Source: Lachnospiraceae bacterium
Lineage (GTDB): Bacteria; Bacillota; Clostridia; Lachnospirales; Lachnospiraceae
DNA length: 64,000 nucleotides
Direction of reading: 5' to 3'
Assembly: GCA_031263035.1 (NCBI GenBank)
Contig: JAISGP010000142.1
Coordinates: 14,224 to 78,223 of the forward strand
Of this stretch, positions 2,851 to 47,596 are shown piece after piece; the stretch's first letter is position 1, and every line of letters begins with the position of its first letter. The notes beneath the pieces were generated by a model. It was not told the DNA's origin, searched no databases, and saw only the letters and a program-made list of their open reading frames with translations. The translations under genes were made by a program, and so were the position numbers.

Positions 2851-4191
2851 TTATAAAAACATAGTCATATACACTGGAATATATACTATATTATCTTCAA
2901 CTTTTAAATCCTTGGTATAAATTATATATTTTTTTCCTAATCGCTTATCAAACTTTTTAGTAAATTTATCTAAAGATGCATGTCTTTTATAAGAGGATGA
3001 TTTTACTTCTATAGGGCAGATTTTTCCATTTCGTTCAATTAAAAAATCTATTTCCATTCTATTTTCTGTATTTTCATTATCACTTCTAGAATAAAAATAT
3101 AGTTTGTCACCATTTGCAACAAGCATTTGTGCTACAATGTTTTCAAAAAACATTCCCTCATTGATTCCTAATCTATGGAATAGTATATTTTTATAAACCC
3201 CCTCATCAACTAGCCTTTTATTAGAAAATGCTTGACTAATAAGTAATCCTGTATCAGCCATATAACATTTTAGTGTTATTCTATCTCTGTATAATCCTAG
3301 TCCTGCATTTGGATCAGAGTTGTTATATCAAACATTTATTATTTTAGCTTCACGTAACCAGGTAAATGCATTTTCATAATTTTTCAATCTTGCATCTTTA
3401 CTTATGCTAGACATTTTAAATTTTTTTTCGTGCCTAGATAATTGAGATGGAATATCGTCAAATATGGACATAACTTTAGTTTCATATCTTTCTGCAAATT
3501 TTACCACATCTGTTCTATATAATTTTAAAATATTTCTTTTTTCTCTATCAACATTTTCAAAATTGTTTGACTCAAGAAATTCAACTACAGCTTGAGGCAT
3601 TCCTCCCACTAACATATACTGTCTAAATAAGTCCATTGCTTTTCTATGAATGATACCAACTGGTTTTCTTTCGTTAAAACATTGTTGCAGATATGGATAT
3701 AACATATCATTTCCAATTGCCCATAAGAATTCTTCAAAATCTAATGGATTCATAGCCATTGAAAGCTCTTCTGAGGGAATAAGAATATCTTTAATATTCT
3801 TATAAATAGAAATCAATGAACCTGTTTCTATGTAATCATATCGTCCATCTTCAACTAGATACTTTATCAATTGACGGGCTTTTGGATATAATTGTATCTC
3901 ATCAAAAATAATAATACTTTGTCTTTCATAAAGATGTTTACCAGTAATGGCTTGAAGTTTTAAAAAAAACTGTTCAAGATTACTACTATTATATTCAAAA
4001 AGATCAATTATTTCAGAATCTATTTTTCCAAAATCTAAGAGAATATAACTTTTGTATTCATTCATGGCAAATTGCTTTACTATGGTACTTTTACCAACTC
4101 TTCTTGCACCTTCAAGCATGATGGCAGTTCTTCCATTCCAATAATTTTTCCATTCTACTAATTCATTATATATTTTTCTTTTTAATATCAT
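2851..4191 (-). pseudogene. AAA+ ATPase with C-terminal DUF4143-like domain, interrupted by a single in-frame TGA
   Basis: ORF 3328..4191 carries a Walker A motif (GARRVGKST) and Walker B-like IIIFDEIQ. ORF 2851..3261 is the usual C-terminal part (CYMADTGLL...IDFLIE...PIEVKS). On the minus strand the reading is ...AKIINV-TGA-YNNSDPNAGLGLYRDRITLKCYMADTG, the same frame throughout. Confidence 0.75.
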
Positions 4192-4286: not shown

Positions 4287-4383
4287 ATATTACACGAATT
4301 TAGCAAATTATTCAAGTAGATTATTCACGAATTTAGCAAATCTTTTGAAAGGATTATTCACGAATTTAGTAAATCTTTTGGGG
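4287..4383. repeat. Three tandem ~32-bp direct repeats with core CACGAATTTAG(C/T)AAAT
   Basis: Read directly. The cores start at 4294, 4326 and 4358. Copies 2 and 3 (GATTATTCACGAATTTAG[C/T]AAATCTTTTG) are nearly identical. Confidence 0.85.
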
Positions 4384-4386
4384 CTC

Positions 4387-4406
4387 TTGTAGCAGATTGT
4401 AGCAGA
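4387..4406. repeat. Tandem 10-bp duplication TTGTAGCAGA x2
   Basis: Read directly: cTTGTAGCAGATTGTAGCAGAtgtg. Confidence 0.8.
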
Positions 4407-4410
4407 TGTG

Positions 4411-4560
4411 AAAAGTAGACACTAAAAAAGTTTTTTTATTGTTTTTATTTTTAAAAGTAGACACGGGCAATTTTTTTTGATATTTTTCTTTTTCAAAAGT
4501 AGACATTTTAATTCTTTTTTGCTCATTTTCTTTTACAAGAGTAGATTTAAAAAACTTTTT
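4411..4560. repeat. Four phased repeats (exact 42-bp period): AAAAGTAGACA core followed by a T-tract
   Basis: The cores start at 4411, 4453, 4495 and 4537 (the last is degenerate, AAGAGTAGA). Each is followed about 8-10 nt later by T6-T8. Confidence 0.8.
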
Positions 4561-4742: not shown

Positions 4743-5021
4743 ATGAGTGACAAAATAAATTCAAGTAGTATAGTGGCAGAAGGTGCAATTAATGAACTTG
4801 TGGGAATTGATGTAAATGATTGTAGAGACAAAACCGTAGATTTTCCTTATTCGGAAGGAATAGCAGGAATGAACAATGGCAGAGGTTTTGCGAATAAAAT
4901 TCTTAAAAGCGTTGGCGAGTTTAGTAAGGCTGTTTTAGAACAGGCTAATAAATTTCCAGAAATTGCTAAAGCTATAGAAAATCGTGATAAGGTTGATAGT
5001 ATTAAATGGGAGAGTAAATAA
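4743..5021 (+). CDS. Small alpha-helical LXG-associated protein (T7SS effector partner, TIGR04197/DUF3130-like)
   Basis: 92 aa with RBS AAAGAGGAGAG upstream of the ATG at 4743. It is the first gene of a coupled operon directly upstream of an LXG protein. The family call is by size, position and helical character only. Confidence 0.55.
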   Translation: MSDKINSSSIVAEGAINELVGIDVNDCRDKTVDFPYSEGIAGMNNGRGFANKILKSVGEFSKAVLEQANKFPEIAKAIENRDKVDSIKWESK

Positions 5022-5383
5022 TGGGATATAATAAAAATGACGAAAAAAGAGATGCCATTAGAAGAGAGATAATAAAAATTGAAGAGAAACAAAGTGATGT
5101 TAGACAATATAAAAGATCTTTTGAAAAAGCTATTTCTAATTTTCATTTGAGATATAAAAGTTTAGCACGTGCAAGTGAAAAAGCAGTATATGATTCTATT
5201 TCTCATGGAAACAAAGGTGCAGCCAATATTCTTGATGTTGATAAAGGAATTAATATTAAAATTGATAGGTTGGTTGATGCACAGTTTCATGAGTTAGATA
5301 GCGGATGTAGAAGAGCAATTAGAAAAATGGAAGATGAAAAAGAAGATTTAATAAGAGAAAGGAATCATTTGCAATGGGAGTAA
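5021..5383 (+). CDS. Small coiled-coil LXG-associated protein (YwqH/DUF5082- or DUF3958-like)
   Basis: 120 aa, charged and heptad-like. Its start overlaps the upstream stop (TAATG) and its end overlaps the LXG gene start by 10 nt. Confidence 0.5.
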   Translation: MGYNKNDEKRDAIRREIIKIEEKQSDVRQYKRSFEKAISNFHLRYKSLARASEKAVYDSISHGNKGAANILDVDKGINIKIDRLVDAQFHELDSGCRRAIRKMEDEKEDLIRERNHLQWE

Positions 5384-6909
5384 AATTTTGTACTGCTGAG
5401 TCAGAAAACTTAATAAAGGCTTTAGAGAATAATATAGATATTGCTGATGGGATTGCAGATAGATTATCATCAGGTTCACAGCATCTTTTAGCTACTATTA
5501 ATTCAGGAGAATTACAAGGTGCAGCATTTATGGCAGGGAAGGGATTATTTGAAGAAGTAATTATTCCAGTAATTAAAAAAATATATAAAGCCACTAAGGA
5601 CATAAAAACAGAGCTAGATGCATATAAAGCAGCACATTCTGTTGCTGCACAAGCTACAATAGGTGGTTATGCTGACCTTGACCAATTAAAGGAACAGTTA
5701 AAAATAAAGAAAAGTCAGCTTGAATTAATAGAAGAACAAATAACACAAAACACATATATTATTACTCAAGCAAATCCATTTTTACGTAAGGAGTTATCTG
5801 GTGTAATAAATCAAAATGTTGGATATGAAAAAACAAAAGCACAATTACAAGCTAATATAAGCGACTATCAAACTAGAATTGATAAGCTGGAATGGTTTGT
5901 GAAGGATGTATCTAGATATTTTTCAGATAGTTTAGTTGTGCTAGATGCAGCAATAAAAGGGGCAACGCAGTTAAGTAAGATAAAAGTTGATTCAAATGGC
6001 AAGTATTATACTGATGGTATAGATATGTCATGGCTTTCAACTATTAAGGATGAAAAAATAACTACAAATGAGAGTTCAGTTAAAGTTTTAGCTGACCAGT
6101 ATGGGCTAAAAACAGAAGATGCAGTGATACTTGCTCTTGCATTCGAAAAGTTTAATAAAAGTGATGATAAGGATGACAAAAAGTTCTTGGCTATGATGAC
6201 TTCTTTGTGTGATGGTTATAGAGATGGCTTAAAAAATAAAGTACAGTGGGGGGCTACAGCTAATATAGCGATGAGTTTAAAAGATGCAGAAGCATATTTT
6301 AAAAAATTAGGTCTTAGTGAAATAGAAGTAAAGAGATTATATAAAGTTATTAATGAACAACATAATAAAGTGTCAAATGCAAGTACTCCAAATAATTTAA
6401 AGAAGCGAGACTTTGCCCATGAAATGGCTACATTAGCAGGTTGTACAAACACTTCAGTTCCTCATAGCATATTAAATGCAGTTATGTTTGGACAAATAAA
6501 AGAATTTGCGGGCTATAAAGGTGATATAGGATCTGGAATATTTGACAGAGATGATATGTTATCAGATACGGACGCAATGAATATATATAATCGTTCAAAG
6601 AAAAATAAGAATAATATTGTTAAGGAATTTGGAAAATACAATAAGGAAATAAGCAAGGGGACAACAAATCGTGCTAAAGAATTTTTACGTAACTTAGGTA
6701 ATGGTAATATTAATGAGGGTAAAAAAAATTTAGCTCTCCAGGTTTATTCATATAATGGTGGAGATGAATATATGGCAAATTTGCCTTTTATTGATTGGTC
6801 GATAGGTGAGGATGATAAAGCAAAAAAGAAAATACACACTTATGTGAATAAAAAAACCAGAAAACTTAAGGAATATATGAGGTTTCTAAATGAAGAAATG
6901 GAAAAATAA
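5374..6909 (+). CDS. LXG-domain polymorphic toxin (T7SS substrate) with unassigned C-terminal toxin domain
   Basis: The N-terminus has the LXG-domain pattern (...INSGELQGAAFMAGKGLFEEVIIPVI...) followed by a long helical region. The C-terminal ~280 aa carries no motif I can assign (it contains KRDFAHEMATLAG and the Asp-rich FDRDDMLSDTDAMN). Confidence 0.7.
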   Translation: MGVKFCTAESENLIKALENNIDIADGIADRLSSGSQHLLATINSGELQGAAFMAGKGLFEEVIIPVIKKIYKATKDIKTELDAYKAAHSVAAQATIGGYADLDQLKEQLKIKKSQLELIEEQITQNTYIITQANPFLRKELSGVINQNVGYEKTKAQLQANISDYQTRIDKLEWFVKDVSRYFSDSLVVLDAAIKGATQLSKIKVDSNGKYYTDGIDMSWLSTIKDEKITTNESSVKVLADQYGLKTEDAVILALAFEKFNKSDDKDDKKFLAMMTSLCDGYRDGLKNKVQWGATANIAMSLKDAEAYFKKLGLSEIEVKRLYKVINEQHNKVSNASTPNNLKKRDFAHEMATLAGCTNTSVPHSILNAVMFGQIKEFAGYKGDIGSGIFDRDDMLSDTDAMNIYNRSKKNKNNIVKEFGKYNKEISKGTTNRAKEFLRNLGNGNINEGKKNLALQVYSYNGGDEYMANLPFIDWSIGEDDKAKKKIHTYVNKKTRKLKEYMRFLNEEMEK

Positions 6910-7429
6910 AAAGATAATAATAATGATTTTAGGATTGATAATCATTGTCATAGGTGTAGTAAGCGTTTACATAAAGTATAATCAAGATTTATCAGCTAAT
7001 TACTTAGTTTTACAAAACATTGATAAGCGATATCCACAAATTATTAAAAAGCTAAAAGATAAAAATCAAATAGTTAAATATGATAATCAAACATTATATA
7101 TAATAAAAGAAAACGTAAAATATGAATTTTGGGACTCGGGATTAAGTACTATAAGCACCCCCGAAGGAATAACGTTATTGGACTTTGAAACAAATAAAAA
7201 TGGCAAAGTTAAAACTTTTGTTGCTTCATTATACAGCGGAATTGATTCATTGAGGGCTAGATATGATTTAAAAACTATGAAACGGCATAAACTATTTTAT
7301 GTATTTGATTTGAGTAAATATGAAGATGAACAAATACATAAACATATTTCAAATATAAAAATGGTTCAGTATGTTAAATCTGGGCAGGTTCTTCAAAATA
7401 AAATAAAAAAAGTACTTGAAGAAAGTTAA
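6890..7429 (+). CDS. Putative cognate immunity protein, N-terminally membrane-anchored
   Basis: 179 aa. It overlaps the toxin 3' end by 20 nt. It has a single N-terminal TM helix (KKIIIMILGLIIIVIGVVSVYI) and then a soluble domain. Its position is typical of an LXG immunity gene. Confidence 0.55.
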   Translation: MKKWKNKKIIIMILGLIIIVIGVVSVYIKYNQDLSANYLVLQNIDKRYPQIIKKLKDKNQIVKYDNQTLYIIKENVKYEFWDSGLSTISTPEGITLLDFETNKNGKVKTFVASLYSGIDSLRARYDLKTMKRHKLFYVFDLSKYEDEQIHKHISNIKMVQYVKSGQVLQNKIKKVLEES

Positions 7430-7483: not shown

Positions 7484-7909
7484 ACGTTATTCACAAAAAT
7501 TCCTATCTTTCTTTTTAAACCCATTAACAATACATATGGAATTGGCTTTTTCGATTGCTTTATTCCTATATGGTGTATACAATATGGTTTTTATATTTAT
7601 TGTGGTTGGATATTATAGAAAAAGGCAAAAAGAGAAAGATGAAGAAAACAAATATATTCATAAAAATAGGTGTTCTAATCGAAAGCATAAATATACTAAT
7701 TTGTAACTAGAAAATTTAAGAAGAGTATAAGTGCTACATAAAAATGGGCTGTGGGATACTCTCTAGGTTTTATTGACAAGCAAGAAAATAGATGTATAAC
7801 GCTACTAAGGGCAAGGCCATAAAATATGACCTTGCCCTTAAGCAACTATTCATAAATCTCATATCATTTTTTTAGGTTTACATAAAACTTGAAACACCCT
7901 CAGTAGATG

Positions 7910-14284: not shown

Positions 14285-14896
14285 TCAGCCATTTAGTTTA
14301 TCAAATAGAATAATTGAAGAATTGTTTTTGGTATTGATTAATTCCTTTTTTAGAATAATTCTTTGTCTTTGATTTTCTGTGAAATCATTAGTTTCCTTTT
14401 CAAAGACAGAGATACATACAAAAGTTAAATCATCTTTTTGGACTTTATCGTTAGTATGTATTAAAAAAACATAACTATATGGTCGGATATTACTTGTTAT
14501 TATATATTCGGCTTTTATATTGGAGGAAAAAGAATAGAGCATTTGTGGTCTAAAATAAAATAGACTAAAATCATTTTTTATAATTTCATTAATGTTAGAT
14601 AAGACGTTCAATCTAGGTAGTATTTCATTAAAATGTATACTTTTTGATATGTAATCTAAAGTAATCGTGTTTTCTAGAATATTATGTAGTAGTTTATTTG
14701 GTTTTAAATATTTAGGGAAACGAGTATCTGTTAGTTTGTGGAAACCAGCCAAATGATAAAAATCACTTTCATTAAATTTAAGTATAATTTTATTAAGTTG
14801 CCGTTTATATCCATATGTAATAATCAGTTGTTTATTTAATAAAGTGTTCCATTCTTTGGCGGCTTTAATAAGTATATTATTAGCTTGTTTATTCAT
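14285..14896 (-). CDS. PBECR4-like (Barnase-EndoU-ColicinE5/D-RelE fold) predicted nuclease domain protein
   Basis: 203 aa from the ATG at 14896 (RBS AAGAGGTGA). The pattern ...LKFNESDFYHLAGFHKLTD... and the C-terminal ...RQRIILKKELINTK...ILFDKL match my recollection of PBECR4-annotated Firmicute proteins. This was not verified by an HMM. Confidence 0.5.
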   Translation of the reverse strand: MNKQANNILIKAAKEWNTLLNKQLIITYGYKRQLNKIILKFNESDFYHLAGFHKLTDTRFPKYLKPNKLLHNILENTITLDYISKSIHFNEILPRLNVLSNINEIIKNDFSLFYFRPQMLYSFSSNIKAEYIITSNIRPYSYVFLIHTNDKVQKDDLTFVCISVFEKETNDFTENQRQRIILKKELINTKNNSSIILFDKLNG

Positions 14897-14917
14897 TGTC
14901 ACCTCTTGTATGTTTAT

Positions 14918-15080
14918 AAAAAAAGAGCCTTGCGTTAGCAAGACCCTTAAAAGCGTTTTTAATGTCGGTTCGTGGTTATCGCATAACCCATAGTCGGACT
15001 CCGTTGCTAACCCAATACCGACAGGACTAGCAATTTCATAGTCAACGATAGCTACTCTTGGTGCTACCCTATGTCAGTAT
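14918..15080 (-). promoter_or_regulatory. Candidate structured 5' leader / riboswitch-like attenuator (class unknown) upstream of the PBECR-like gene
   Basis: This ~160-nt stretch is visibly richer in G+C than its flanks.
- Helices (plus-strand coordinates): a 7-bp helix 14963-14969/15017-15023 and a 6-bp hairpin 14974-14988.
- Terminator: GGGUCUUGC-UAAC-GCAAGGCUC followed by U7 (14918-14946). Its G-U pairs form only on the minus strand.
- Competing pairing: an 8-bp alternative pairing (15004-15011 with 14934-14941) overlaps the terminator 5' arm.
- Position: the U-run ends about 20 nt before the start codon. Confidence 0.55.
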
Positions 15081-29920: not shown

Positions 29921-31438
29921 ATGAGTATTATAAAAAGATTAGAAGAGATAGTAAAACAAAAAGGCGAAGTAATTGCCTTTATTGATAAAGATAAAGAATG
30001 GACTTTTAAGAAGTTATGGAGTGACAGTCAGGAGATTAGAAAGAAAATTTCAAATGTACCAGAAGGACCAATTCTTGTCTATGGTGCAAATGACTATAGA
30101 ATGTTAACAGGCTTTATTGGAACAAGTATGGCAGGACATCCATACGTACCAATGGACTCTCATTCTCCATTTGAGAGAGTGAAGATGGTTATAGAAGCCT
30201 GTAACCCAAGTGCAATTATTATTACTCAAGAGGAAGATAGAGAAGAATATCTGAATCTATTTGATGATAATAATTCTTTTTATTTACAGGATTTTGACTT
30301 TAATGTTAATCATGAAAAGGCTAATTTATCAAAAGAAGTAGTAGGTGATGAAACCTATTATATTATATATACTTCCGGAACCACAGGAGTTCCTAAGGGG
30401 GTTGCTGTAAGTCACAACAACCTTGAAACATTTTCAGATTGGATGATAGATGATTTTGATGAAATAGATGATAATAAAGTTTTATCTCAAGCACCTTATG
30501 TATTTGACCTTTCTATTTTTAGCTTATATCCAACTCTTTTAAGAGGGGGAACCATTGTAAGTTTATCTAAAGAAGAGATTTCCAATTTTAAATTACTATT
30601 TGAGAGACTTAATAGTTCAGAAATCAACACATGGGTAAGTACTCCAAGTTTTGTGGATATTTGTCTTTTAGATCCAAGCTTTACGGCTGCTAATCATTCA
30701 GGGTTAAAGCAGTTTATTTTCTGCGGAGAAAAATTAGAAGCTAGTACTGCTAAAAAGCTTTTAGATAAATTTCCGGAAGCTTCTGTATGGAATACTTATG
30801 GTCCTACTGAAGCAACAGGTGCTATAAGTAGTGTTAAGATTACTGATGATATAGTGAAAAATTACGATAATCTTCCTATTGGTAAGGCTAAAAGTGGCGT
30901 GGAGATTAGAATACAAGATACCGATACAAAGGAATTTGTAGAAGATGGTAATTCTGGAGAAATCATTATAGTTGGTAATTCTGTTGCCAATGGTTACTAT
31001 AAAAATGAAGAGAAAACTCATGAAGCCTTTTTCACTATTGACGGTACAAGAGCATATCATACTGGAGATGCTGGATTTATAGATGAAGACGGACAATTAA
31101 ATTACGTAGGACGTATTGATTTTCAGATTAAACTTAATGGATTTAGAATTGAGTTAGGGGATATTGAGAACAATCTTGCAGCAATAGATGAAGTAGACAA
31201 GGCAGTTGTACTACCAAAGACTAATAAAGGCAATAAAGTAACAGGTCTTGTGGCAGTTATTTCAGCAGAATGTGATGAAGACGAGAAAACTTTTACTAAA
31301 TATATTAAAAAAGAACTGTCTAAACGAGTAACAGATTATATGATTCCATCAAAGTATGTATATATGGATACTTTTCCTTTAAATCAAAATGGAAAGATTG
31401 ACAGAAAGAAAATTAAGGAAGAGGTGCTAGGATTATGA
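29921..31438 (+). CDS. dltA: D-alanine--D-alanyl carrier protein ligase
   Basis: Adenylation-domain motifs YIIYTSGTTGVPKG and YHTGD. Operon context with dltB/C/D. Confidence 0.92.
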   Translation: MSIIKRLEEIVKQKGEVIAFIDKDKEWTFKKLWSDSQEIRKKISNVPEGPILVYGANDYRMLTGFIGTSMAGHPYVPMDSHSPFERVKMVIEACNPSAIIITQEEDREEYLNLFDDNNSFYLQDFDFNVNHEKANLSKEVVGDETYYIIYTSGTTGVPKGVAVSHNNLETFSDWMIDDFDEIDDNKVLSQAPYVFDLSIFSLYPTLLRGGTIVSLSKEEISNFKLLFERLNSSEINTWVSTPSFVDICLLDPSFTAANHSGLKQFIFCGEKLEASTAKKLLDKFPEASVWNTYGPTEATGAISSVKITDDIVKNYDNLPIGKAKSGVEIRIQDTDTKEFVEDGNSGEIIIVGNSVANGYYKNEEKTHEAFFTIDGTRAYHTGDAGFIDEDGQLNYVGRIDFQIKLNGFRIELGDIENNLAAIDEVDKAVVLPKTNKGNKVTGLVAVISAECDEDEKTFTKYIKKELSKRVTDYMIPSKYVYMDTFPLNQNGKIDRKKIKEEVLGL

Positions 31439-32649
31439 TACCTTATGAAAGTCCAAGATATTTTATACCCCTAATTGTAGCCATTATTCCATTAATTATA
31501 GCTCACCTTAAAGGCAAAAAATGGATGGGCTATCAGGCAGTTTTTACATTTGCATTTTTATGGCTTACCTTTGGCGGACCTAATATAAGAAGTGGAATAG
31601 CATTATTATGTTATGGAGTGTGGCAGGTACTTATCGTAAAAGGATACGAGTACTATCGCATTACCCTAAAGAAAAACACCACACATATTTTTATTATAAG
31701 CATTTTATTATCTTTAGTTCCATTGTTTTGCGTAAAGTTAACTCCATTTATTATTCATAAACCTTCCCTATTTGGTTTTCTAGGAATAAGTTATCTTACA
31801 TTTAAGTCTATAAATGTTATTATGGAGATTAGAGATGGAGCACTTAAAGAAGTAAAATTATTACATTTTATATACTTTATGTATTTCTTCCCTACTATTT
31901 CAAGTGGACCTATTGATAGATATAGAAGATTTGCAAATGATATGGATGAAAGCTTTGCAAATAAAGACTATATTAATATGTTAGGTAAAGGTTTTACCTG
32001 CATATTCATAGGTTTATTTTACAAATTTATTGTAGGATATTTAATTGATATTTATGCCCTTCATCCATTTGCAATAGAAGCTACTAAATATCCAGTTATT
32101 TTTAACTTATTAAAGGTTATGTACAGTTATGGATTGTATCTATTCTTTGATTTTGCCGGTTATTCTATGTTTGCAGTAGGGGTAAGTTACATAATGGGAT
32201 ATGAAATCCCTAAGAACTTTAATTTGCCATTTATTTCTAAAAACATAAAAGATTTTTGGAATCGTTGGCATATGAGTTTGAGTTTTTGGTTTAGGGATTT
32301 TGTATACATGAGGCTTGTATACTTTATTGTTAAGAAAAGAGTAATTAAAAATAGGAATGTAATAAGTAATATTTCTTATTTTGGATTATTTCTTTTAATG
32401 GGAGCATGGCATGGATTAACATGGTATTATCTAGCCTATGGTGCTTATCATGCAGTTTTAATGTGTGTTACAGATGCATGGATTAGATGGAAGAAAAAGC
32501 ATAAAGGTTTAGTTCCTACGGGAAAAGCCATTGATGTAATTAATATTGTTCTTACTTTCCATGCAGTAATGTTTAGTTTCTTGATTTTTTCAGGAATTTT
32601 TGATTTTATTATAAAATATCCGGTGACTAAAATACTGCCTAGTTGGTAG
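31435..32649 (+). CDS. dltB: D-alanyl-lipoteichoic acid biosynthesis protein DltB (MBOAT)
   Basis: Polytopic, with the MBOAT region FWNRWHMSLSFWFRDFVY and the later AWHG motif. Confidence 0.92.
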   Translation: MIPYESPRYFIPLIVAIIPLIIAHLKGKKWMGYQAVFTFAFLWLTFGGPNIRSGIALLCYGVWQVLIVKGYEYYRITLKKNTTHIFIISILLSLVPLFCVKLTPFIIHKPSLFGFLGISYLTFKSINVIMEIRDGALKEVKLLHFIYFMYFFPTISSGPIDRYRRFANDMDESFANKDYINMLGKGFTCIFIGLFYKFIVGYLIDIYALHPFAIEATKYPVIFNLLKVMYSYGLYLFFDFAGYSMFAVGVSYIMGYEIPKNFNLPFISKNIKDFWNRWHMSLSFWFRDFVYMRLVYFIVKKRVIKNRNVISNISYFGLFLLMGAWHGLTWYYLAYGAYHAVLMCVTDAWIRWKKKHKGLVPTGKAIDVINIVLTFHAVMFSFLIFSGIFDFIIKYPVTKILPSW

Positions 32650-32682
32650 GATATTTACTTATATAAAGGAATGAGGTTTAAC

Positions 32683-32781
32683 ATGTTTAAAGGTTATATT
32701 AAGTTTAAAATTACTATGATTATAATATCAGTAATTGTACTTATAGGAGTTGTAGGAGCAACATTAATTTTTGGTATATAG
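32683..32781 (+). CDS. Unannotated 32-aa single-TM micro-ORF between dltB and dltC
   Basis: MFKGYIKFKITMIIISVIVLIGVVGATLIFGI. GAGGT lies 5 nt upstream. The ORF neatly fills the dltB-dltC gap. Confidence 0.45.
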   Translation: MFKGYIKFKITMIIISVIVLIGVVGATLIFGI

Positions 32782-32796
32782 AAGGGAGAGCGTATA

Positions 32797-33033
32797 ATGA
32801 AAGAAAGAGTTTTTGATGTAATTGAAAGAGTTTCCGGTATGGATGATTTCCGTGAAGATGAAAATATGGATCTTTTTGAAGCCGGTATTTTAGATTCAAT
32901 GGGAGCAATTATGTTAATCGTTGATCTTGAAGAGGAATTTGGGGTTTCTCTTCCTCCATCTGAAATGGATAGAGAAGATTGGAATACAGCTGCCAAAATA
33001 GTAGATCGCATTGAGGAAAAGGTTAATGAATAA
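32797..33033 (+). CDS. dltC: D-alanyl carrier protein
   Basis: 78 aa with the phosphopantetheine attachment motif LDSMG. Confidence 0.93.
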   Translation: MKERVFDVIERVSGMDDFREDENMDLFEAGILDSMGAIMLIVDLEEEFGVSLPPSEMDREDWNTAAKIVDRIEEKVNE

Positions 33034-34330
33034 AAAGAAATTATGGAAAGCAATAGGACCTGTCATTTGTGCAATGATACTTGTCCTAGTTTTACTTGTA
33101 TCTCCATTAAATTATGTGAAACGTTATTCAAAAAAAGAATTAGATACATATGCCGCTAGTCAGTCTCTTCAAGTATTTTTAGGAACACCAATTAAAAGTC
33201 AGGCATTTGCAAATAAAAAATATTTGCCTATTATGGGATCAAGCGAATTAAGTCGTTTTGATTCATTTCATCCAAGTGTAATTGCAAAAAAATACAATAG
33301 GGACTACACACCATTTTTAATTGGTACTGCCGGAACCCAAAGTTTAACACATTATTTTTACTTAAATTCTATTGAAAAAGAAATGAAAAATAGAAAAATA
33401 GTATTTATTATTAGTCCACAATGGTTTATTCGCAAATATGATAGAAAAACCAAAACTATAACCAGAGATGGAATAGATAAATACGCATTTTATCAGTTCG
33501 TTTCTTCAGAAGATATTTGCAAATGGGCATTAAGTGCTGATCCTAAATTAGAGACTACGAAGGTTACAGCTAAAAGGCTTTTATCTTTTCCTAGTATTGA
33601 TGATTCAGAGTTTAAACGTCCAATATTAGAAAGTCTTGCAAATGGTCAAAAACCCGGTGGTCTTACAAAAGCTATTATGGATGTACAATTTCAAATATAT
33701 AGTGGAGAAGATAGGTTTTATTCAAAATTTAGTAAGCCTATTGTTGGCAGAAAGTTTAAGAAAAAGGAAAGAGTTCTTCCTAATATCTACAATGCTCAGC
33801 TATTAAAAGAAATAGCAGAAGAAGAAGGCAAAAGAGAATCAAGAAATAATAACTTTGATATAAATAATACATTTTATAATTTGAAAATTAGACCTAAGTT
33901 TTCTAAATTAAAAGGTGCATTTAGAAGAACTAGTTATTTGACTAGTGCCGAGTATACAGATTTTCAACTTCTATTAAATGAATTTGCTAAATTAAATGAT
34001 GATGTTATGTTTGTAATTCCTCCTGTTAATACTAAGTGGACAAAATACACTGGTCTTAGAAAGGATATGCTTCAGACTTTTTCTAAGAAGATTACAGAGC
34101 AACTTAGAAGTCAAGGATTTAATAACATTGTTGATTATACAGATAAAGGTGGTGTGCCTTATTTCCTAAATGATACAATTCATATTGGAAAAGTTGGTTG
34201 GATTACCTTTGACGGAGATCTTCAGAACTTCTTAAATAGAAATGATAAACATACATATAAAATAAATAATAAAAAATACCTAACTAAAGAATGGGCAATT
34301 GATACTTATGGTTATGGTAAAAAGAAGTAA
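33026..34330 (+). CDS. dltD: D-alanyl-lipoteichoic acid biosynthesis protein DltD
   Basis: N-terminal TM anchor and the SGNH-like GSSE motif (LPIMGSSELS). The ATG at 33026 overlaps the dltC stop (a TTG at 33011 is also possible). Confidence 0.88.
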   Translation: MNKKKLWKAIGPVICAMILVLVLLVSPLNYVKRYSKKELDTYAASQSLQVFLGTPIKSQAFANKKYLPIMGSSELSRFDSFHPSVIAKKYNRDYTPFLIGTAGTQSLTHYFYLNSIEKEMKNRKIVFIISPQWFIRKYDRKTKTITRDGIDKYAFYQFVSSEDICKWALSADPKLETTKVTAKRLLSFPSIDDSEFKRPILESLANGQKPGGLTKAIMDVQFQIYSGEDRFYSKFSKPIVGRKFKKKERVLPNIYNAQLLKEIAEEEGKRESRNNNFDINNTFYNLKIRPKFSKLKGAFRRTSYLTSAEYTDFQLLLNEFAKLNDDVMFVIPPVNTKWTKYTGLRKDMLQTFSKKITEQLRSQGFNNIVDYTDKGGVPYFLNDTIHIGKVGWITFDGDLQNFLNRNDKHTYKINNKKYLTKEWAIDTYGYGKKK

Positions 34331-37029: not shown

Positions 37030-38490
37030 TTAATTTATAAATACGCCGTCTAACTGTTTACAAATAAAGGCTTCCAAAGTTGTGAAATTACTGATATTTG
37101 AAACTGATGATAAATTAAAGAATGGTGTGCTTTTACAAATATCAGGTGGTATCCAATCAGAAATTACTGCGTCAGGTAGTTCTCCCCCTAATTGGGATAT
37201 TGAGAGAACATCAATAGGAAATAATGAAACAGATTTAATAACCCATATCATTTGCTCTCTTTGTAGTGGGCTTGCCTTTGATTGTAGTAAAATTCGTAGT
37301 TTTGGCTTGTGTTCTTTAAATATAGTGGTTAATAATAAACCATAAATATTTCTTACAATTGGAAAACGCTCTATCATTTTAGCTGCTTCGGGAAACCTTG
37401 CTACAAAAATATTAAGAGTTTCATGTATTATTCGATAATCTTTTGGTAAAAGTAATTTTAATTTTTCGTCAAAATTTTGAACACCAAAAATAGGAGAGGG
37501 ACCTTTATATAAATTGGCAAGCTTATTAAAATAATATAGGTTTATTTTAATATAATTGATCTCATTTTTTTGTAGAGTAAAATCAAATTCTCTACCTAGT
37601 AATTCAACGAAACTATCTGCTATGTCATCAGTATGATAGACTATGTCCACATTGTTTTTTTCGTAGTCTAGTGGTATTGGAGAAATTGTGCAGAATAGTA
37701 GATATAGGTTTTCACATTCTACTTGTTCAGTGCCTGGTTCTGTACAATATTTTAATACCCCAGCTTCTTTTACTTCTCTATAAAAATCATCATATGAGAT
37801 TAAGGGATGGTTTTCTATAAAAAACTCTTCTCTTAACCGTATAAAATGTTTGTTTTGAGTACGCTTTAAAAGGATAAAAACTGATAAATTAAATCGTTGC
37901 ATACTGAAATAATCTATGTCAGGATTTATTCGTAAAAGCATTTTGGTAACATTTTGGATTACCGGTAAATTTAAATAAGAATCACATAAACTTAGTTCCC
38001 AAAAAAGTGCATTATAGAAATATCGAACTTGTAATTCTCGCCCTTTTATGGTTTCTTTTGAATGAAAACTAAGGTTTAATTCGTAATCCTTCATAAGTTT
38101 TCTAAGTCCGGCTACATGCTTTTGAAAAACACTTCTACTTACACATAAGTCATAAGATAAATCGGTTCCATTTGAATCTTCATTTAAAAAAAGACTTTTA
38201 ATTATTTTGTATTTTACAGAATCCTCAATCATTATATGAAGTAATTCAGATGGATGAGGAGGATTAGGATACCTTTCTTTTAATATATGCTTATTATAGG
38301 AAAAATGTGGCTTTTCCTGTTGTTTATCATAGTTAATCAATTCTGTGATTAATCTATTTACGGCTCGTCTATCAATATTTAATTTTTCGGAGAGTTTTAT
38401 ATATGAAATCTCTTTATTAGGAGTTTTATAAAGCTCTTCAACAATTCTTAACATATAGGATTGATTTTTTTCTAAAAAAACTTCTTTCAT
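37030..38490 (-). CDS. Mga/RofA-like stand-alone HTH virulence-type regulator (paralog 1)
   Basis: 486 aa with an N-terminal winged-HTH-like segment (ISYIKLSEKLNIDRRAVNRLITEL). Its size and its position divergent from a pilus operon are typical of RofA/Mga/EbpR-type regulators. It has the same length as ORF 48785..50245 and about half of positions are identical by eye. Confidence 0.6.
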   Translation of the reverse strand: MKEVFLEKNQSYMLRIVEELYKTPNKEISYIKLSEKLNIDRRAVNRLITELINYDKQQEKPHFSYNKHILKERYPNPPHPSELLHIMIEDSVKYKIIKSLFLNEDSNGTDLSYDLCVSRSVFQKHVAGLRKLMKDYELNLSFHSKETIKGRELQVRYFYNALFWELSLCDSYLNLPVIQNVTKMLLRINPDIDYFSMQRFNLSVFILLKRTQNKHFIRLREEFFIENHPLISYDDFYREVKEAGVLKYCTEPGTEQVECENLYLLFCTISPIPLDYEKNNVDIVYHTDDIADSFVELLGREFDFTLQKNEINYIKINLYYFNKLANLYKGPSPIFGVQNFDEKLKLLLPKDYRIIHETLNIFVARFPEAAKMIERFPIVRNIYGLLLTTIFKEHKPKLRILLQSKASPLQREQMIWVIKSVSLFPIDVLSISQLGGELPDAVISDWIPPDICKSTPFFNLSSVSNISNFTTLEAFICKQLDGVFIN

Positions 38491-38910
38491 TTTTTGTTCC
38501 CCTTTTATTAAAAATATTTATACAATAATGTTTATGTTTTGTATTGTATACAATGATGCAAATTTACTTAAATTGTTTCAAAACACTCAAAAGATAAAAA
38601 TGTAAATTTTCCTCCTTTCTTCATAAATCTTAGTTATCTTTTGTAAATGTTTGAACGGGAATAATTTTTAAAATGTAATAAAACTATTCCAAAAATTCTA
38701 AAATTTTTATAGAGAAAATATAAATATAATATACAAACCATTATAGCATTATGGAAAATTTCATTTTATTTTAATATGTCATACACATAACATTTGCAAA
38801 GCAAACCAAATGTGCATATCCAAAATTCGTAAAACTTCGAGAGATTTTTGTTATAGAATGTAACTAAATCAATTAAGTTAAATATTGCTTTGATATTTTA
38901 CATTTTTCGA

Positions 38911-38958
38911 AAAACCTATAATGTAGGTTGCATATTGCGATGAGACATTATAGGTTTT
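38911..38958 (+). promoter_or_regulatory. 14-bp perfect inverted repeat in the leader of the tip adhesin gene
   Basis: AAAACCTATAATGT, a 20-nt spacer, then ACATTATAGGTTTT, ending 38 nt before the ATG at 38996. It could be an RNA hairpin followed by UUUU or a protein operator. Confidence 0.5.
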
Positions 38959-38995
38959 GAATATAAATGGTTGTTGAGTAAGAAAGGTGGAAGTT

Positions 38996-41900
38996 ATGAA
39001 ATATTATGGGAAGATAAAAAGATGGCTATGTATATTGACGATTTTAGCTGTTTTTTTAGTACCGGTTTTTAATAGCTTAATACCAATGTCTAGAGCTGAA
39101 GAGAGTACTTCAGAAGAACAGATTAAGAGTAATACTGGTAAGAAAGAAAAGACTGAGGATGTAAGTGAAGAGAAAAATCAAACTAAGGTGGAACCTTCTG
39201 GGGATGCTACTAGTGATGTTATTGGTGAAGATAAAGAAGAAGCCGTCACTAAGGATGATACTTCAGATGAATCCACTGATGATAAGAATAATACAGAATA
39301 TACCGGTGGTGAGAAAAAATCTACTAATGCAGATGAAGAAGAGGCCTTTGATAAACATAGTTTAGGTAGAACACCATCTCTTCCTCGTCCAAGACGTTCT
39401 ATAACCGGAACATGGTCTGGAAATGGAAGTGAGACTACACCCTATGAAATCAGTACACCTGATGATTTAAAAGCTTTATCAGATGATGTTGCAAGTGGAG
39501 AAACATTTGCAGGTAAGTATTTTATCGTAACTGCTGATTTGGATTTAAGTGGGTATACTTCTTGGGTGCCTATAGGTTCAAGCAGAAGAGAACTTATTTT
39601 TGATCATTCTATTGATGATAATGATCCTTTGGTTGTAGATAATAATAATACTATGAGTGATCCTTTTGAAGGGAATTTTGATGGAAATAATAAAACAATT
39701 ACAGGATTAACTATTAATAAGCCAACAACGAATGGTGCAGCATCTGATTATAATGGATTATTTGGATTTCTCCATAATGGTTCAATATCTAATGTGATTA
39801 TAAGTGGTGCTAATATTCAAGGGCAGTCAGGAACTGGAGTTCTCTTAGGATATGGAAGGGATAATGTTACAGTAAGTAATTGCCATGTATTAAATTCAAC
39901 AGTGAATTCAACACAAGTTAATAGTAATTATGGAACAGCTGCTTTAATTGGAGAGCTAAAGTATTATGGAAACACTTCTGGTCCTGCAGTAGTTAGTGTT
40001 ACTAATAGTACGGTGGAAAACACTACAGTTAATAGTAAGAACGGTGCCGGAAGAAATGGAATTCTTATAGGTCAGATGTCAGCATACTTTTCAAACAGTA
40101 TGACAACACTACCTACAATTAATTCTAAAGTTACAATAAAAGATTGTGATGTTATTAATTCAAGTTTAGACAGTACTGTTTATTATATAGGCGGTATTGT
40201 AGGCTGCATGGATTATAGAGAAAGCAATAGTAATGAAGTAACTATAGATAACTGTGATGTATCTGGTGGAGGAACTAATCATATCAGATGTGGCTCATAT
40301 TATATGGGAGGAGCTATTGGATTTATTTGGTGTCAAGGGGTTGAAGGAATAGATCAATGTACTAATAATACTTTTTTAATTCAAGGATGTGATGTTAGTG
40401 GAATGGAAATATCCAATGATAACTATGAAGTTGGAGGACTTATAGGATTTTTGGATATACATCGAAACGCTGATGGTAATACCTATACCTTAAAGAATAA
40501 TACAGTAAATAATTGCAATATCTTTAGTACAGGAAGTTTTAATGTAGGAGGATTAATAGGATTATATTATACATATTTTGCAAATGATAATACTGTAAAT
40601 ATAGAGCAGTGTTTCGTAAATGATTGTACTATGTATAGTACGGCTAATTATAATGTAGGCGGATTTGTTGGACATTATCTTATAGATAGTTCTCAAAATA
40701 ATGTAGAGAATATTATTAATTCTGGAGTAAGAAGGTCTACTATTTCTCAAAATACAAATAATAGAGGTGGATTTATTGGGAGACTTGAATTAATAAATAA
40801 TGTAAATGGCACAGTGTGTACAATAAAGAACACTTATGCAGATGCTAAAGTTAATGGCACAGTTCGAGTAGGAGGGTTAATTGGATATTTATATAATCCA
40901 TCAACTTCCGGTGTAGTTCAAATAATAAATTGTTACACAATGGGCAGCGTAACTGCAACTGCAACTGCAGGCTACGCAGGTGGATTGATTGGATATTGTG
41001 GTGATAATGGTAAAAGTACAATAAAAAATTCCTATTCTATTTCTAGTACAAGTGCATCAACTAGTGGAGGATTGATTGGGTATAATGGAAATGCTTCAAC
41101 CCAAATATCTAATTGTTATGCAGCAGGTTTTATGAGTGGAACATCAACTACACGTGGAGGATTTGTTGGTGGTGGATTAAAAAATGCAACTACTTTTACT
41201 AATTGCTTTTATGATACTACAACTACAGGACGAACAGCGTCTCAAGCTTTTGGTAATGCTGCCCAAGCTGGTATTACAGGAGTGTCTACAGGATATGAAT
41301 TAAACAAAGCCCCTGGCATGACCAATATTGAAACCTTTAGTTCTTGGAATATAAAAAGCAATTTTGGTGGTGCTTCAAAAGGTCAAGGTACAGATGATAA
41401 TCCTTGGTATATAGATGATAAGATTACATACCCATATTTATATTATCAATATGATGGTTATTCTAAGGATGATGTTAATTACCAGTTAAGCAATGCTAAA
41501 TATAGCTTTGATGATGGTACCGTAACAGACAAGGCAATTACCCCAAGGCGAGCAGATTATTTTATAAGTAATGCAGATAATAATGAAAAGATAAGCTATA
41601 CAGTGAAGACTGCAGGTGCAGCAGCAGTTTTTTATCCATATACGTTAGAGAGTTACAACTTTGGTCAAAATGAAAGCCTTAGAGTTCCATCTGGTACCGG
41701 AAGTTTTACAGTAACGAGTAAAACCACACCATACTCTTTAGGTGGAATATCTAAAACAGATATAGTTGGATTTGATCCGCTACCTTATGCAGAGAAAACT
41801 TCTGACAGAGCCAAGTATGTGGCAGGCACTACATCTACTTACACGAAACGTGGAGATTTAATCACATATACAGTTTCCATTTATAACCCAAGCACTATTT

Positions 41901-43279
41901 ACAAATGGGTAGATGTAACCTTAAATGATCCATTTCCGGAAGGGGTTACATTGGTAGATTATTTATACAATGGAACTAAATACAATGTAAAAGTAGCGGT
42001 AGGAGATGGTACGCCGGTGATTGTGCCAAAGAATACGGCAGAAGGCAACGAACCATATTACTATACATATACTAAAGCAACGACATCAAGTGGAGTTGAT
42101 GGTCCATTAAATGTATATCTTGGTGATATGCCTATTGCTTCTGAAAATGCTAATGGGGAACTGGAACCTTATAAAGTAACAGTTACATTTACTGCAATTA
42201 TTGATAGAAGAGCAGTAAGTAAATTCCCGTTAGATAATGCTCAGAATAAGATAGATAATGGAGATAATATTAGAAATATTGGTACAGTATCCGGCACTAT
42301 TAAAGAAAATGCAAGTGGTGAAGGTGCTTTTGATTATAGTACTAAATATGATGACAATGATACAGATCCTGTTTATGACACATATAAGGTAAGTTACATT
42401 GGTAATGGTGGAAAAACAGCAGTAGGAGATACTAGATATAACTATTATTATCTCTATGACCAGAGTAGTACTGTTAAAGATAATGATGGTAACCCATTCT
42501 TATTTAAAAGACTTTACTATACATATCTTGACAAATGGGATAGCAGACCAGATTTTGTAGAAGGTAGCACCAAGGAGTATCAAATTGGAGATACATTAGC
42601 TCTTACTAATAATCTAAATCCAATTAATAGTGCAAATAGAACAGACACAGATAATGCAGATGATATAAATGATGATTATTATGCAGCTACAGATTTTAAG
42701 CTCTATGCACCTTGGAAGGAAGATAAAGGCTCAATAAAGATTATTAAAAAGAGTGAAGATGGTGATTTTCTAGATGGAGCTAAGTTCTTATTAGAGAAAA
42801 AAGATGGTGATAATTGGATACCTATAAAATGGGATAGTACATCTTCGAGTTGGATTAATCTTCCAAGTGGTGAAACTTATTCTGGAGAAACCGCCGGAAG
42901 TGGCGGAGAATTAACCTTCGGTAAAGAAGAAACAGATAACACTCTTAAATTTGGAGTTTATCGTATTACGGAAGTAGGAGCTAAAGAAGGTTATCAGTTA
43001 CTTAAAGATCCACTTATAGTCACACTACCTTATGAGAAGGCATCTAGCACGGATCCAAATGATAGCTGGAACACTACATATGTAAATGATAATGGAGAGA
43101 CTATGTACTCTTATTACAATCTTACATATACAGTTACCAATGTTGGAGCATTTGAATTACCTAAAGCAGGGAATAAAAACGTCTTTCCATTTTTGGAGGT
43201 AGGTTTATTTATTGCATTTCTTGGAATAGCCATTCAGGCAAGGCGATATAGAAGAGCTAAAAGAGGGAGGAAGCCTTAA
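38996..43279 (+). CDS. Large sortase-anchored adhesin (probable pilus tip subunit) with GLUG-type repeat beta-helix-like region and Cna-B/SpaA-type domains
   Basis: - N-terminus: signal peptide followed by an acidic low-complexity linker.
- Repeat region: about 20 repeats containing GG(L/F)(I/V)G(Y/F).
- DUF11-like segment: GDLITYTVSIYN...TLNDPFPEGVTLVD.
- One Listeria-Bacteroides type repeat: YKVSYIGNGG.
- C-terminal Cna-B-like domain: GSIKIIKKSEDG...YRITEVGAKEGY.
- Sorting signal: LPKAG, a TM helix, then RRYRRAKRGRK. Confidence 0.75.
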   Translation: MKYYGKIKRWLCILTILAVFLVPVFNSLIPMSRAEESTSEEQIKSNTGKKEKTEDVSEEKNQTKVEPSGDATSDVIGEDKEEAVTKDDTSDESTDDKNNTEYTGGEKKSTNADEEEAFDKHSLGRTPSLPRPRRSITGTWSGNGSETTPYEISTPDDLKALSDDVASGETFAGKYFIVTADLDLSGYTSWVPIGSSRRELIFDHSIDDNDPLVVDNNNTMSDPFEGNFDGNNKTITGLTINKPTTNGAASDYNGLFGFLHNGSISNVIISGANIQGQSGTGVLLGYGRDNVTVSNCHVLNSTVNSTQVNSNYGTAALIGELKYYGNTSGPAVVSVTNSTVENTTVNSKNGAGRNGILIGQMSAYFSNSMTTLPTINSKVTIKDCDVINSSLDSTVYYIGGIVGCMDYRESNSNEVTIDNCDVSGGGTNHIRCGSYYMGGAIGFIWCQGVEGIDQCTNNTFLIQGCDVSGMEISNDNYEVGGLIGFLDIHRNADGNTYTLKNNTVNNCNIFSTGSFNVGGLIGLYYTYFANDNTVNIEQCFVNDCTMYSTANYNVGGFVGHYLIDSSQNNVENIINSGVRRSTISQNTNNRGGFIGRLELINNVNGTVCTIKNTYADAKVNGTVRVGGLIGYLYNPSTSGVVQIINCYTMGSVTATATAGYAGGLIGYCGDNGKSTIKNSYSISSTSASTSGGLIGYNGNASTQISNCYAAGFMSGTSTTRGGFVGGGLKNATTFTNCFYDTTTTGRTASQAFGNAAQAGITGVSTGYELNKAPGMTNIETFSSWNIKSNFGGASKGQGTDDNPWYIDDKITYPYLYYQYDGYSKDDVNYQLSNAKYSFDDGTVTDKAITPRRADYFISNADNNEKISYTVKTAGAAAVFYPYTLESYNFGQNESLRVPSGTGSFTVTSKTTPYSLGGISKTDIVGFDPLPYAEKTSDRAKYVAGTTSTYTKRGDLITYTVSIYNPSTIYKWVDVTLNDPFPEGVTLVDYLYNGTKYNVKVAVGDGTPVIVPKNTAEGNEPYYYTYTKATTSSGVDGPLNVYLGDMPIASENANGELEPYKVTVTFTAIIDRRAVSKFPLDNAQNKIDNGDNIRNIGTVSGTIKENASGEGAFDYSTKYDDNDTDPVYDTYKVSYIGNGGKTAVGDTRYNYYYLYDQSSTVKDNDGNPFLFKRLYYTYLDKWDSRPDFVEGSTKEYQIGDTLALTNNLNPINSANRTDTDNADDINDDYYAATDFKLYAPWKEDKGSIKIIKKSEDGDFLDGAKFLLEKKDGDNWIPIKWDSTSSSWINLPSGETYSGETAGSGGELTFGKEETDNTLKFGVYRITEVGAKEGYQLLKDPLIVTLPYEKASSTDPNDSWNTTYVNDNGETMYSYYNLTYTVTNVGAFELPKAGNKNVFPFLEVGLFIAFLGIAIQARRYRRAKRGRKP

Positions 43280-43514
43280 TGTTAAGACTTTTATAGATTA
43301 AATTATTCGAAACTTAATTTTAATAATTTAGCGATGACTGAAAAGCTATAGATATTTATATTAAGTTATCTATAAAAAACGTATAAGCCTATTATATAAA
43401 AAATATAATATTTAATTACCAAATCGTTGTAGAGATATATAACATTTCGTGGAATATATTTTTACTTCAGATAAATTTAAAAAGAAAAAAATTCACTTTG
43501 AAAAGGAGAATAGT

Positions 43515-45044: not shown

Positions 45045-45120
45045 TATTTGCAATTAAATTAGAGGAAAATAGTTTATTTTGATAGTAATTTTTCATATAA
45101 AGTAGTACCTCAAAAAATCG

Positions 45121-45148
45121 GATATAGGAGGGTAAAAACTCCTATATC
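45121..45148 (+). terminator. Hairpin after the major pilin gene (possible partial terminator setting subunit stoichiometry)
   Basis: GATATAGGAG / CTCCTATATC (10 bp perfect) with no strong U-tract. Confidence 0.35.
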
Positions 45149-45173
45149 TATTAAAAAGGGGATAGAAAAATAG

Positions 45174-46028
45174 ATGAGAAAACACTTCTTAAATATTTTG
45201 ACTGTTTTGATTATTTTAGCAGGAATAGCCTTAATGTTTTATCCCTTTTTTTCAGAATGGTATAGTAATGTACACCATGCAAAAGTTATAAAAACATATA
45301 ATCAAAAAGTTGAAAGTAAAACAGAGAAAGAGTTAGATGCTGAAAGAAAAAAAGCTGAGGAGTACAATAGAAATCTTCTGGGAAAAGTAATCCTTACAGA
45401 CCCTTTTGATCCAAAGAATAAAATAGAAGATACAGGTGATTATAGTTCTATTTTAAATGTAGATGGAAATGGGATGATGGGAGATATACGTATTCCAAGT
45501 ATTGATGTAAATCTTCCAATATATCATGGCACTACAAGTGATATATTGGCAAAGGGAGTGGGACATCTTGAGTATACTTCTTTTCCGGTAGGTGGTAAGT
45601 CCACCCATACAGTTTTATCTGCGCATACTGGAATACCTTCAGCAGAATTATTTACTAACCTTGATAAAGTTAAGATTGGGGATATATTTTATCTAGATGT
45701 TTTGGACAAAACATTGGCTTATAAGGTTGACCAGATAAAGGTGGTTTTGCCAACTGACACCTCTGATTTAAGGATAGTTCGCAATAAGGATTATGCAACA
45801 CTAGTTACATGTACACCCTATGGTATTAATTCTCATAGACTTTTGGTTAGAGGAATTAGAACTAAGTATGTAAAAGCAAAGGATAAGGATACAAGTTACA
45901 ATCTTGTGAATAGTCTACGACTTAGACTTTTGATTATCTGTATAGTGTCTCTATTTCTTGTGATTTTAATTCTTTATCTATTATATAGACGAAGAAAAAA
46001 GAAGGAAGATAATCAAAACCATAATTGA
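45174..46028 (+). CDS. srtC: Class C (pilin-polymerising) sortase 1
   Basis: N-terminal and C-terminal TM anchors, lid motif DPF, catalytic HTG...TLVTCTPYGINSHRLLVRG. Confidence 0.9.
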   Translation: MRKHFLNILTVLIILAGIALMFYPFFSEWYSNVHHAKVIKTYNQKVESKTEKELDAERKKAEEYNRNLLGKVILTDPFDPKNKIEDTGDYSSILNVDGNGMMGDIRIPSIDVNLPIYHGTTSDILAKGVGHLEYTSFPVGGKSTHTVLSAHTGIPSAELFTNLDKVKIGDIFYLDVLDKTLAYKVDQIKVVLPTDTSDLRIVRNKDYATLVTCTPYGINSHRLLVRGIRTKYVKAKDKDTSYNLVNSLRLRLLIICIVSLFLVILILYLLYRRRKKKEDNQNHN

Positions 46029-47496: not shown

Positions 47497-47596
47497 TTTA
47501 ACTTTATTTAGATATTGCTATAGAGCTATTAATATGTTTTGCAAATAGTTGTATTTCCATATGAAAATAAAACAAAGGGTAGTTGGAATAGTATAG

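Follow-up and report, generated by a model that had tools for sequence, protein, structure and literature searches.

The subject of this analysis is a run of four overlapping genes in a 64-kb stretch of DNA (the window) from a Lachnospiraceae metagenome-assembled genome (MAG), which encodes two small helical proteins, a 511-residue toxin and a 179-residue membrane-anchored protein. We consider it very likely that the locus is a complete, apparently intact cassette of the lapC1-lapC2-telC-immunity type, belonging with the LXG polymorphic toxins of type VIIb secretion. Judged by profile comparison, the C-terminal domain of the toxin is a homologue of TelC from Streptococcus intermedius that keeps every family-invariant catalytic residue; the toxin is a member of a divergent, shorter TelC subfamily and reveals no new mechanism. 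A preliminary description of this DNA had recognized the architecture correctly (an LXG-type toxin with a pair of small helical partner proteins and an immunity protein anchored in the membrane). It had also called the toxin domain unassigned, which the matches below show to be wrong, and had cited TelC as a mere precedent: the relevance of TelC stands, and TelC proves to be an actual homologue of the toxin domain.

The four open reading frames (ORFs) are genes and not chance ORFs, because the toxin has 138 homologues (lowest E-value 2e-125) and because both the gene order and one of the overlaps recur elsewhere, the order in ten or more further loci. The order is identical in every locus retrieved (L002/L003, L004, L005, L006/L007, L008/L009, L010-L012, L013, L017 and L018), and across related loci the second small gene likewise runs 10 nt into the toxin gene. 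In the window, consecutive ORFs overlap by exactly 1, 10 and 20 nt, as the preliminary description had noted and the ORF list confirms. A strong Shine-Dalgarno sequence, AAGAGGAGAGAGAAATAATG, lies 5′ of the downstream ORF1 start, which is the start chosen by NCBI (MDR1018823.1); the 112-residue form is the JGI call. The deposited record of the 511-residue toxin, LBM02_09010 from a Lachnospiraceae MAG, names it a hypothetical protein. Coordinates of the cassette and of other features in the window are collected in Table 1.

Table 1. Features of the cassette and its surroundings, in positions of the window.
Feature	Coordinates	Strand	Description	Basis
ORF1	4683/4743-5021	+	112 or 92 residues	ORF list
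Lap1-type targeting factor (TIGR04197/DUF3130-like)	4743-5021	+	92 residues, helical	
ORF2, protein in Lap2 position	5021-5383	+	120 residues, predicted helical; C-terminal LIxERNxLxWE conserved	ORF list
ORF3, toxin	5374-6909	+	511 residues	ORF list
LXG-type N-terminal secretion domain	5374-5985	+	toxin residues 1-204	transitive homology
LxG motif L47-Q48-G49	5512-5520	+	L47 and G49 invariant	
TelC-family (prok-TelC lipocone) toxin domain	5986-6909	+	toxin residues 205-511	profile matches to 5UKH
DFAHE motif	6409-6423	+	invariant D346, H349	
Asp-rich motif FDRDDMLSDTDAMN	6541-6582	+	residues 390-403 of the 511-residue toxin	
ORF4, presumed cognate immunity protein	6890-7429	+	179 residues; single transmembrane (TM) anchor ~9-30; extracytoplasmic alpha/beta domain	ORF list
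AAA_14 + DUF4143 ATPase gene	2851-4191	-	single in-frame TGA (...KIINV*YNNSDP...); ORFs of 287 and 136 residues	
Two sets of tandem direct repeats	4293-4545		550-nt intergenic region upstream of the cassette	
Small ORF just 3′ of the immunity gene	7536-7706	+	56 residues, one hydrophobic segment	gene call in public assembly
PBECR4 protein	14285-14941	-	218 residues	PBECR4 match, E = 3.5e-26
dlt-type cluster	29921-34330		AMP-binding enzyme, MBOAT protein, DltD	
Sortase-dependent pilus cluster with an Mga-like regulator on either side	37030-50245		1430-residue SpaA-domain protein, pilin backbone protein, two sortases, another SpaA-domain protein	

The assignment of the toxin domain is carried by profile matches to the crystal structure of the S. 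intermedius TelC toxin domain (5UKH, chain 5UKH_A). A profile built from 18 full-length homologues (A1) matched 5UKH_A at E = 4.7e-39 over profile positions 215-454, and a profile confined to the window toxin's own narrow subfamily (A9, four sequences) matched its catalytic core at E = 1.5e-10. An intermediate homologue, P0024, connects the two ends, as it matches 5UKH at E = 2.7e-36 and is itself matched by the window toxin at E = 1.2e-61. In the 18-sequence alignment, D346, H349, G383, D384, D394, D398, D400, N403 and R433 are invariant, as are the DFAHE motif and the Asp-rich pattern DDxxSDxDxxN. DFAHE aligns to DFTH of 5UKH. The Asp-rich stretch FDRDDMLSDTDAMN, which the preliminary description had singled out, is present as described and aligns with IGEDDYKADLDSVN of TelC, the conserved Asp-rich motif (DDYKADLDSVN in 5UKH) that is assigned to the calcium-binding active site in the original TelC work.

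In published work on TelC, a lipid II phosphatase that depends on Ca2+, residues of the conserved Asp-rich motif bind calcium in what is proposed to be the active site, and toxicity is lost when these residues are mutated (PMC5555719). The enzyme accepts both lipid II and undecaprenyl pyrophosphate (C55-PP). A second Asp six residues downstream, beside the conserved His and Asp, is a feature unique to TelC families (PMC12419801), and D400 of the window toxin lies six residues downstream of D394. The toxin domain is ~25-30% identical to TelC and lacks the long streptococcal TelC insert between the QH helix and DFAHE. In an AlphaFold2 model of the toxin (mean predicted local distance difference test score, pLDDT, 83) the domain is all-alpha except for one beta-hairpin at ~residues 204-212, a pattern that agrees with the published description of TelC, although Foldseek with this model missed 5UKH.

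The N-terminal part of the toxin is, by transitive homology, an LXG domain. Residues 1-231 share 48% identity with P0108 of S. cristatus, which scores 32.8 bits on the Pfam LXG model against a threshold of 26.5, and other homologues of the toxin carry weak PF04740 tags. Similarity breaks at ~residue 231, as expected of polymorphic toxins, in which a shared N-terminus is joined to varied C-termini; indeed, ~100 streptococcal proteins with the common N-terminus carry different C-termini, including EndoU, Ntox44, PF24691 and others. The AlphaFold2 model places long helical hairpins at the N-terminus, with LxG at the turn between helices 7-43 and 50-94. Foldseek lists the LXG domain of TelA (8GMH) with a probability of 0.94-0.97 and an E-value of 0.3-0.6, which is not significant.

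Export of TelC requires both LapC1 and LapC2, and Lap1 proteins carry an FxxxD export motif and a DxxTxxxGN motif (PMC9600955). NCBI names ORF1 a 'TIGR04197 family type VII secretion effector'. Homologues of ORF1 that are 47-54% identical to it match TIGR04197/DUF3130 below threshold (E ~0.02) over the full model length, and a more distant equivalent in L004 gives a strong family match (4e-22). ORF1 shares 53% identity with its counterpart in L018, an essC-linked cassette, and 54% with the Streptococcus sp. A12 protein. ORF2 has a counterpart in every homologous locus, with the same position, size, LIxERNxLxWE motif and 10-nt overlap into the toxin gene; identity to the L018 counterpart is 25% (E = 6e-16). 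Among the equivalents of ORF2, that of L004 alone passes the DUF3958 threshold (1.2e-8), with faint matches in L003 (0.1) and L005 (1.1). Alignment of the ORF2 family with the DUF3958 cluster by hhalign was uninformative because the DUF3958 side lacks diversity, and searches of the PDB with ORF1 and ORF2 profiles yielded coiled-coil noise only, with no LapD or LapA matches.

ORF4 begins with MKKWKNKK followed by a ~20-residue hydrophobic run, which falls in a helix (3-35) of its AlphaFold2 model; by the positive-inside rule, its topology is N-in/C-out. ORF4 contains no Cys and is therefore not a lipoprotein; several of its homologues are lipoproteins with an L-x-S-C lipobox. An extracytoplasmic anchor is found on ORF4 and all its relatives; the mode of anchoring varies and the outward location is constant. 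This constancy supports toxin action outside the membrane, and the earlier proposal of an envelope target holds. The ORF4 model (pLDDT 82.9) comprises the TM helix, one helix, seven strands and two helices. Its element count equals that of the soluble domain of TipC2, with three helices and seven strands (PMC6193138), and we infer, from the TipC sequence only, that the elements probably follow the same order in TipC.

Several results weigh against this reading of the locus. PF04740, TIGR04197, DUF3130 (PF11328) and DUF3958 (PF13125) gave no match to the window proteins at E <= 1, the toxin against PF04740 included. The export motif of ORF1 reads I78-E-N-R-D82 (IENRD) and not FxxxD, and its DxxTxxxGN motif is degenerate, with Gly alone kept. 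Membership of ORF2 in DUF3958 is unproven, direct scans of ORF2 having given no family. A single-sequence search of the PDB with the window toxin did not match 5UKH, which profiles alone reach. A Foldseek search of the PDB with the full-length AlphaFold2 toxin model, a check that the preliminary description had suggested for residues ~230-511, gave no significant match, and 5UKH was absent from the top 50. The ORF4 family shows no detectable relation to TipC by hhalign (probability 0.2%). Finally, no type VII secretion system (T7SS) core gene turned up among the scanned ORFs of the window, a scan that covered most ORFs of at least 100 residues upstream of 55.7 kb; for the NusG/ribosomal-protein/RpoB-like end at 55.7-64 kb, the labels come from the ORF layout alone. 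The cassette had been called an orphan on the same grounds, which is true for the window among the ORFs scanned.

The absent PF04740 and TIGR04197 matches probably reflect weak models, not a missing domain, because P0108 passes PF04740 and NCBI places ORF1 in TIGR04197. The preliminary description had named the lack of an LXG profile match as a refutation: formally, the direct match is indeed lacking, and the LXG reading is upheld indirectly, through P0108 and the NCBI name of ORF1. In ORF1, the Asp of IENRD is invariant, and Ile replaces Phe throughout the subfamily, the streptococcal member included. Because Foldseek missed 5UKH despite certain homology by hidden Markov model (HMM), its negatives are unreliable for these helical domains and for ORF4 versus TipC2.

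Further comparisons agree in separating ORF4 from TipC. Neither ORF4 nor its profile matched the TipC structure 6DHX, which a genuine TipC matches at 1.6e-8, and in an all-against-all phmmer comparison the ORF4 and TipC groups stayed separate. ORF4 has no Pfam or PDB sequence match. Foldseek with the ORF4 model gave no significant match, with 6DHX absent from the top 50, which is a weak negative given that 5UKH was also missed. Searches of 5.8 billion proteins and 1.84 billion cluster representatives recovered ORF4 itself and three to four relatives only, and a 12-sequence ORF4 profile found five proteins and no link to TipC. On sequence grounds, then, ORF4 is a member of a small unannotated family and not a TipC. 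The TipC precedent invoked in the preliminary description thus holds as an analogy and fails as a statement of family membership by sequence.

Homologues of ORF4 were found solely downstream of toxins from the window toxin's own TelC subfamily (L002, L004, L008, L010 and L013, and weakly L016). Other TelC subfamilies are followed by TipC (L006, L007) or by further unlinked membrane proteins (L005, L017, L018), such that toxin subfamily and immunity family co-vary. The ORF4 family likely replaces TipC as the immunity partner of one TelC subfamily. A stronger version, in which TelC-type toxins have in the ORF4 family a second immunity fold of independent origin, strikes us as unlikely.

The best link between this cassette type and a type VIIb secretion system (T7SSb) comes from L018, whose cassette sits directly downstream of essC (1486 residues), a YwqH-like gene, DUF4176 and an Ntox15 LXG toxin. 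A profile search of genome-collection contigs recovered toxin relatives from MAGs of Clostridium and Ruminococcus, and also from Leifsonia sp. P73 and 'Streptomyces sp. L7'. Leifsonia sp. P73 (L013 4717-8029) and 'Streptomyces sp. L7' (L014) carry the whole Lap1-Lap2-LXG/TelC cassette together with two lipoprotein immunity genes, on an island of 57-63% guanine-plus-cytosine (GC) content inside actinobacterial DNA of 70-75% GC, which points to cross-phylum horizontal transfer. In L013 the toxin ORF falls into two parts, at 5399-5989 and 5923-6912. In all, the TelC subfamily accompanied by the ORF4 family spans Clostridia, termite-associated Bacilli and the low-GC islands of Leifsonia and 'Streptomyces sp. 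L7'.

Other arrangements of the cassette and of its toxin domain were also observed. In L004 2681-10521 (termite-associated Bacilli) and L006 136-8067 (Streptococcus sp. A12), the cassette adjoins an integrase, a Rep protein and a helix-turn-helix (HTH) regulator, neighbours that give it the look of cargo on a small integrative element. In L015 3548-6529 and L016 43-3092, from the Clostridium and Ruminococcus MAGs, the toxin domain of the same TelC subfamily is joined to different N-terminal domains. The L015 fusion follows three small ORFs, one with a weak WXG100 match, the L016 fusion follows a CdiA_C-type toxin fragment, and a lipoprotein gene comes after each.

By analogy with the S. intermedius work, which is the source for substrate, Ca2+ dependence, T7SSb export and ORF4 neutralization alike, the cassette would operate as follows. 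The LXG helical domain of the 511-residue protein would bind the co-translated ORF1 (Lap1/TIGR04197) and ORF2 (in the Lap2 position), forming a pre-secretion complex to be recognized by a T7SSb encoded elsewhere in the genome. Once exported, the C-terminal domain would act as a TelC-family Ca2+-dependent phosphatase outside the membrane of a neighbouring Gram-positive cell, where it would cleave the undecaprenyl-phosphate bond of lipid II (and of undecaprenyl pyrophosphate). Such cleavage would block peptidoglycan synthesis and probably teichoic-acid synthesis too. ORF4, held in the membrane of the producer with its alpha/beta domain facing the wall, would bind and block toxin arriving from sister cells.

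One point at which this scheme might need revision is the substrate. The same fold and delivery could serve another polyprenyl-pyrophosphate-linked precursor (of teichoic acid, capsule or exopolysaccharide, or C55-PP only) in place of lipid II, and a correspondingly changed toxin surface would account for the different immunity family. Such a shift would fit the low identity to TelC, which is undetectable in pairwise comparison with 5UKH, as well as the missing insert before DFAHE and an immunity family unrelated in sequence to TipC; moreover, lipocone toxins may target other lipid-carrier linkages (PMC12419801). However, every family-invariant catalytic position is kept, TelC already takes lipid II and C55-PP, and the immunity proteins of polymorphic toxins commonly diverge without a change of substrate. 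We therefore regard a different substrate as quite improbable.

A separate possibility concerns not the chemistry of the toxin but whether it is ever delivered: the cassette could be a stranded relic, acquired horizontally by a genome without T7SSb, its toxin never exported and its immunity gene protective, at most, against the toxins of neighbours. The lack of ess genes in scans of the window, the in-frame stop in the neighbouring AAA_14/DUF4143 gene, the presence of related cassettes on integrative elements and the low-GC islands in Actinobacteria, one with a split toxin gene, would all suit a relic. Against it, none of the four ORFs is broken, the coupling overlaps and the catalytic residues are preserved, the Shine-Dalgarno sequence is strong, and the GC content equals that of the surroundings. 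Distance from ess is also unremarkable, as LXG cassettes commonly lie far from ess loci; the locus tags of TelC, SIR_1486-1491, mark a dedicated telC cluster. Taken together, a relic appears highly unlikely.

A reading of the C-terminal domain as a toxin outside all known families, with a novel activity, is almost certainly wrong: local Pfam and NCBIfam scans (with a Pfam set lacking PF27189 and PF28027) found no family for residues 230-511, and the sole precomputed label is a weak match to PF27189 ('YkzU'), but the 5UKH profile matches, the P0024 match and the aligned active-site motifs refute it. The lapC1-lapC2-telC-immunity type cassette thus remains our reading of the locus.

In the cassette, GC content is like that of the surroundings, with no sign of recent acquisition. 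A nonsense mutation that made it a pseudogene, or else an error in sequencing, probably explains the split AAA_14/DUF4143 gene on the opposite strand. The intergenic region upstream of the cassette contains one set of three 33-nt repeat units with the core CACGAATTTAGCAAAT, which occurs 3 times versus 0.01 expected by chance, and another of three 42-nt units with the core AAAAGTAGACA; spacings of ~3 and 4 helical turns suggest putative arrays of regulator binding sites. The small ORF just downstream of the immunity gene has no family match.

Elsewhere in the window, the protein that matches PBECR4 (phage-Barnase-EndoU-ColicinE5/D-RelE-like nuclease 4) may, on the strength of that match, be another toxin-like gene, ~7 kb from the cassette. 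The window has two sortase-pilin clusters, and the AMP-binding enzyme and MBOAT protein of its dlt-type cluster are DltA- and DltB-like. Among its other genes are those for an LPXTG surface protein and MutS2, for an OGG-type DNA glycosylase, for sugar ABC transport and for transketolase; precomputed Pfam tags on the identical contig L001 add an HD-domain protein and an RNA methyltransferase.

Collectively, these results make a cassette left 'hypothetical' by curated domain models assignable to a known cell-wall-targeting toxin, and they locate TelC-type toxins in MAGs (one of Lachnospiraceae, others of Clostridium and Ruminococcus) and on actinobacterial islands apparently gained by horizontal transfer. 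What is new is modest: a divergent TelC subfamily, a non-TipC immunity family, a clostridial host and cross-phylum spread. The unannotated membrane/lipoprotein immunity family should be useful for annotation and for the study of how immunity proteins recognize the TelC fold. If Leifsonia and 'Streptomyces sp. L7' lack T7SSb, the cassette would there be exported by a different type of T7SS, or kept for its immunity genes alone.

Among known systems, the closest parallel is TelC-TipC with LapC1 and LapC2 of S. intermedius B196 (SIR_1491-1488), which has the same gene order of Lap1, Lap2, LXG toxin and membrane-anchored immunity protein. Its toxin domain is homologous, with DFxH and DDxxxDxDxxN in both proteins, and the boundary between LXG and toxin domains lies at ~residue 200-230 in each. 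TipC and ORF4 are alike in their N-terminal TM segment and outward-facing domain, the inhibitory domain of TipC residing in the inner wall zone (PMC6193138). The window cassette departs from this parallel in its shorter toxin domain, without the large insert before DFAHE, in an ORF4 unrelated in sequence to the TipC family (PF28027, 6DHX), and in a Lap1 that reads IxxxD where the Lap1 family has FxxxD. The hosts differ as well: the window comes from a Lachnospiraceae MAG (Clostridia), whereas TipC homologues have been reported in Lactobacillales only (PMC6193138).

More distantly, TelD with LapD1 and LapD2, and TelA with LapA3 and LapA4 (8GMH), share the LXG helical domain and the small helical partners encoded immediately upstream; their cassettes carry other toxin domains and mostly other immunity proteins, and TelA has a different partner pair. 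At the level of the fold, the window toxin shares with the prok-TelC family of the lipocone superfamily (Burroughs et al., eLife 2025, PMC12419801) a soluble helical domain and the His, Asp and Asp+6 residues, and in both cases the domain forms the toxin tip of T7SS (WXG/LXG) polymorphic toxins. In that survey, TipC is the sole immunity protein reported for lipocone toxins (PMC12419801); here, a second, unannotated membrane/lipoprotein family stands beside a prok-TelC subfamily.

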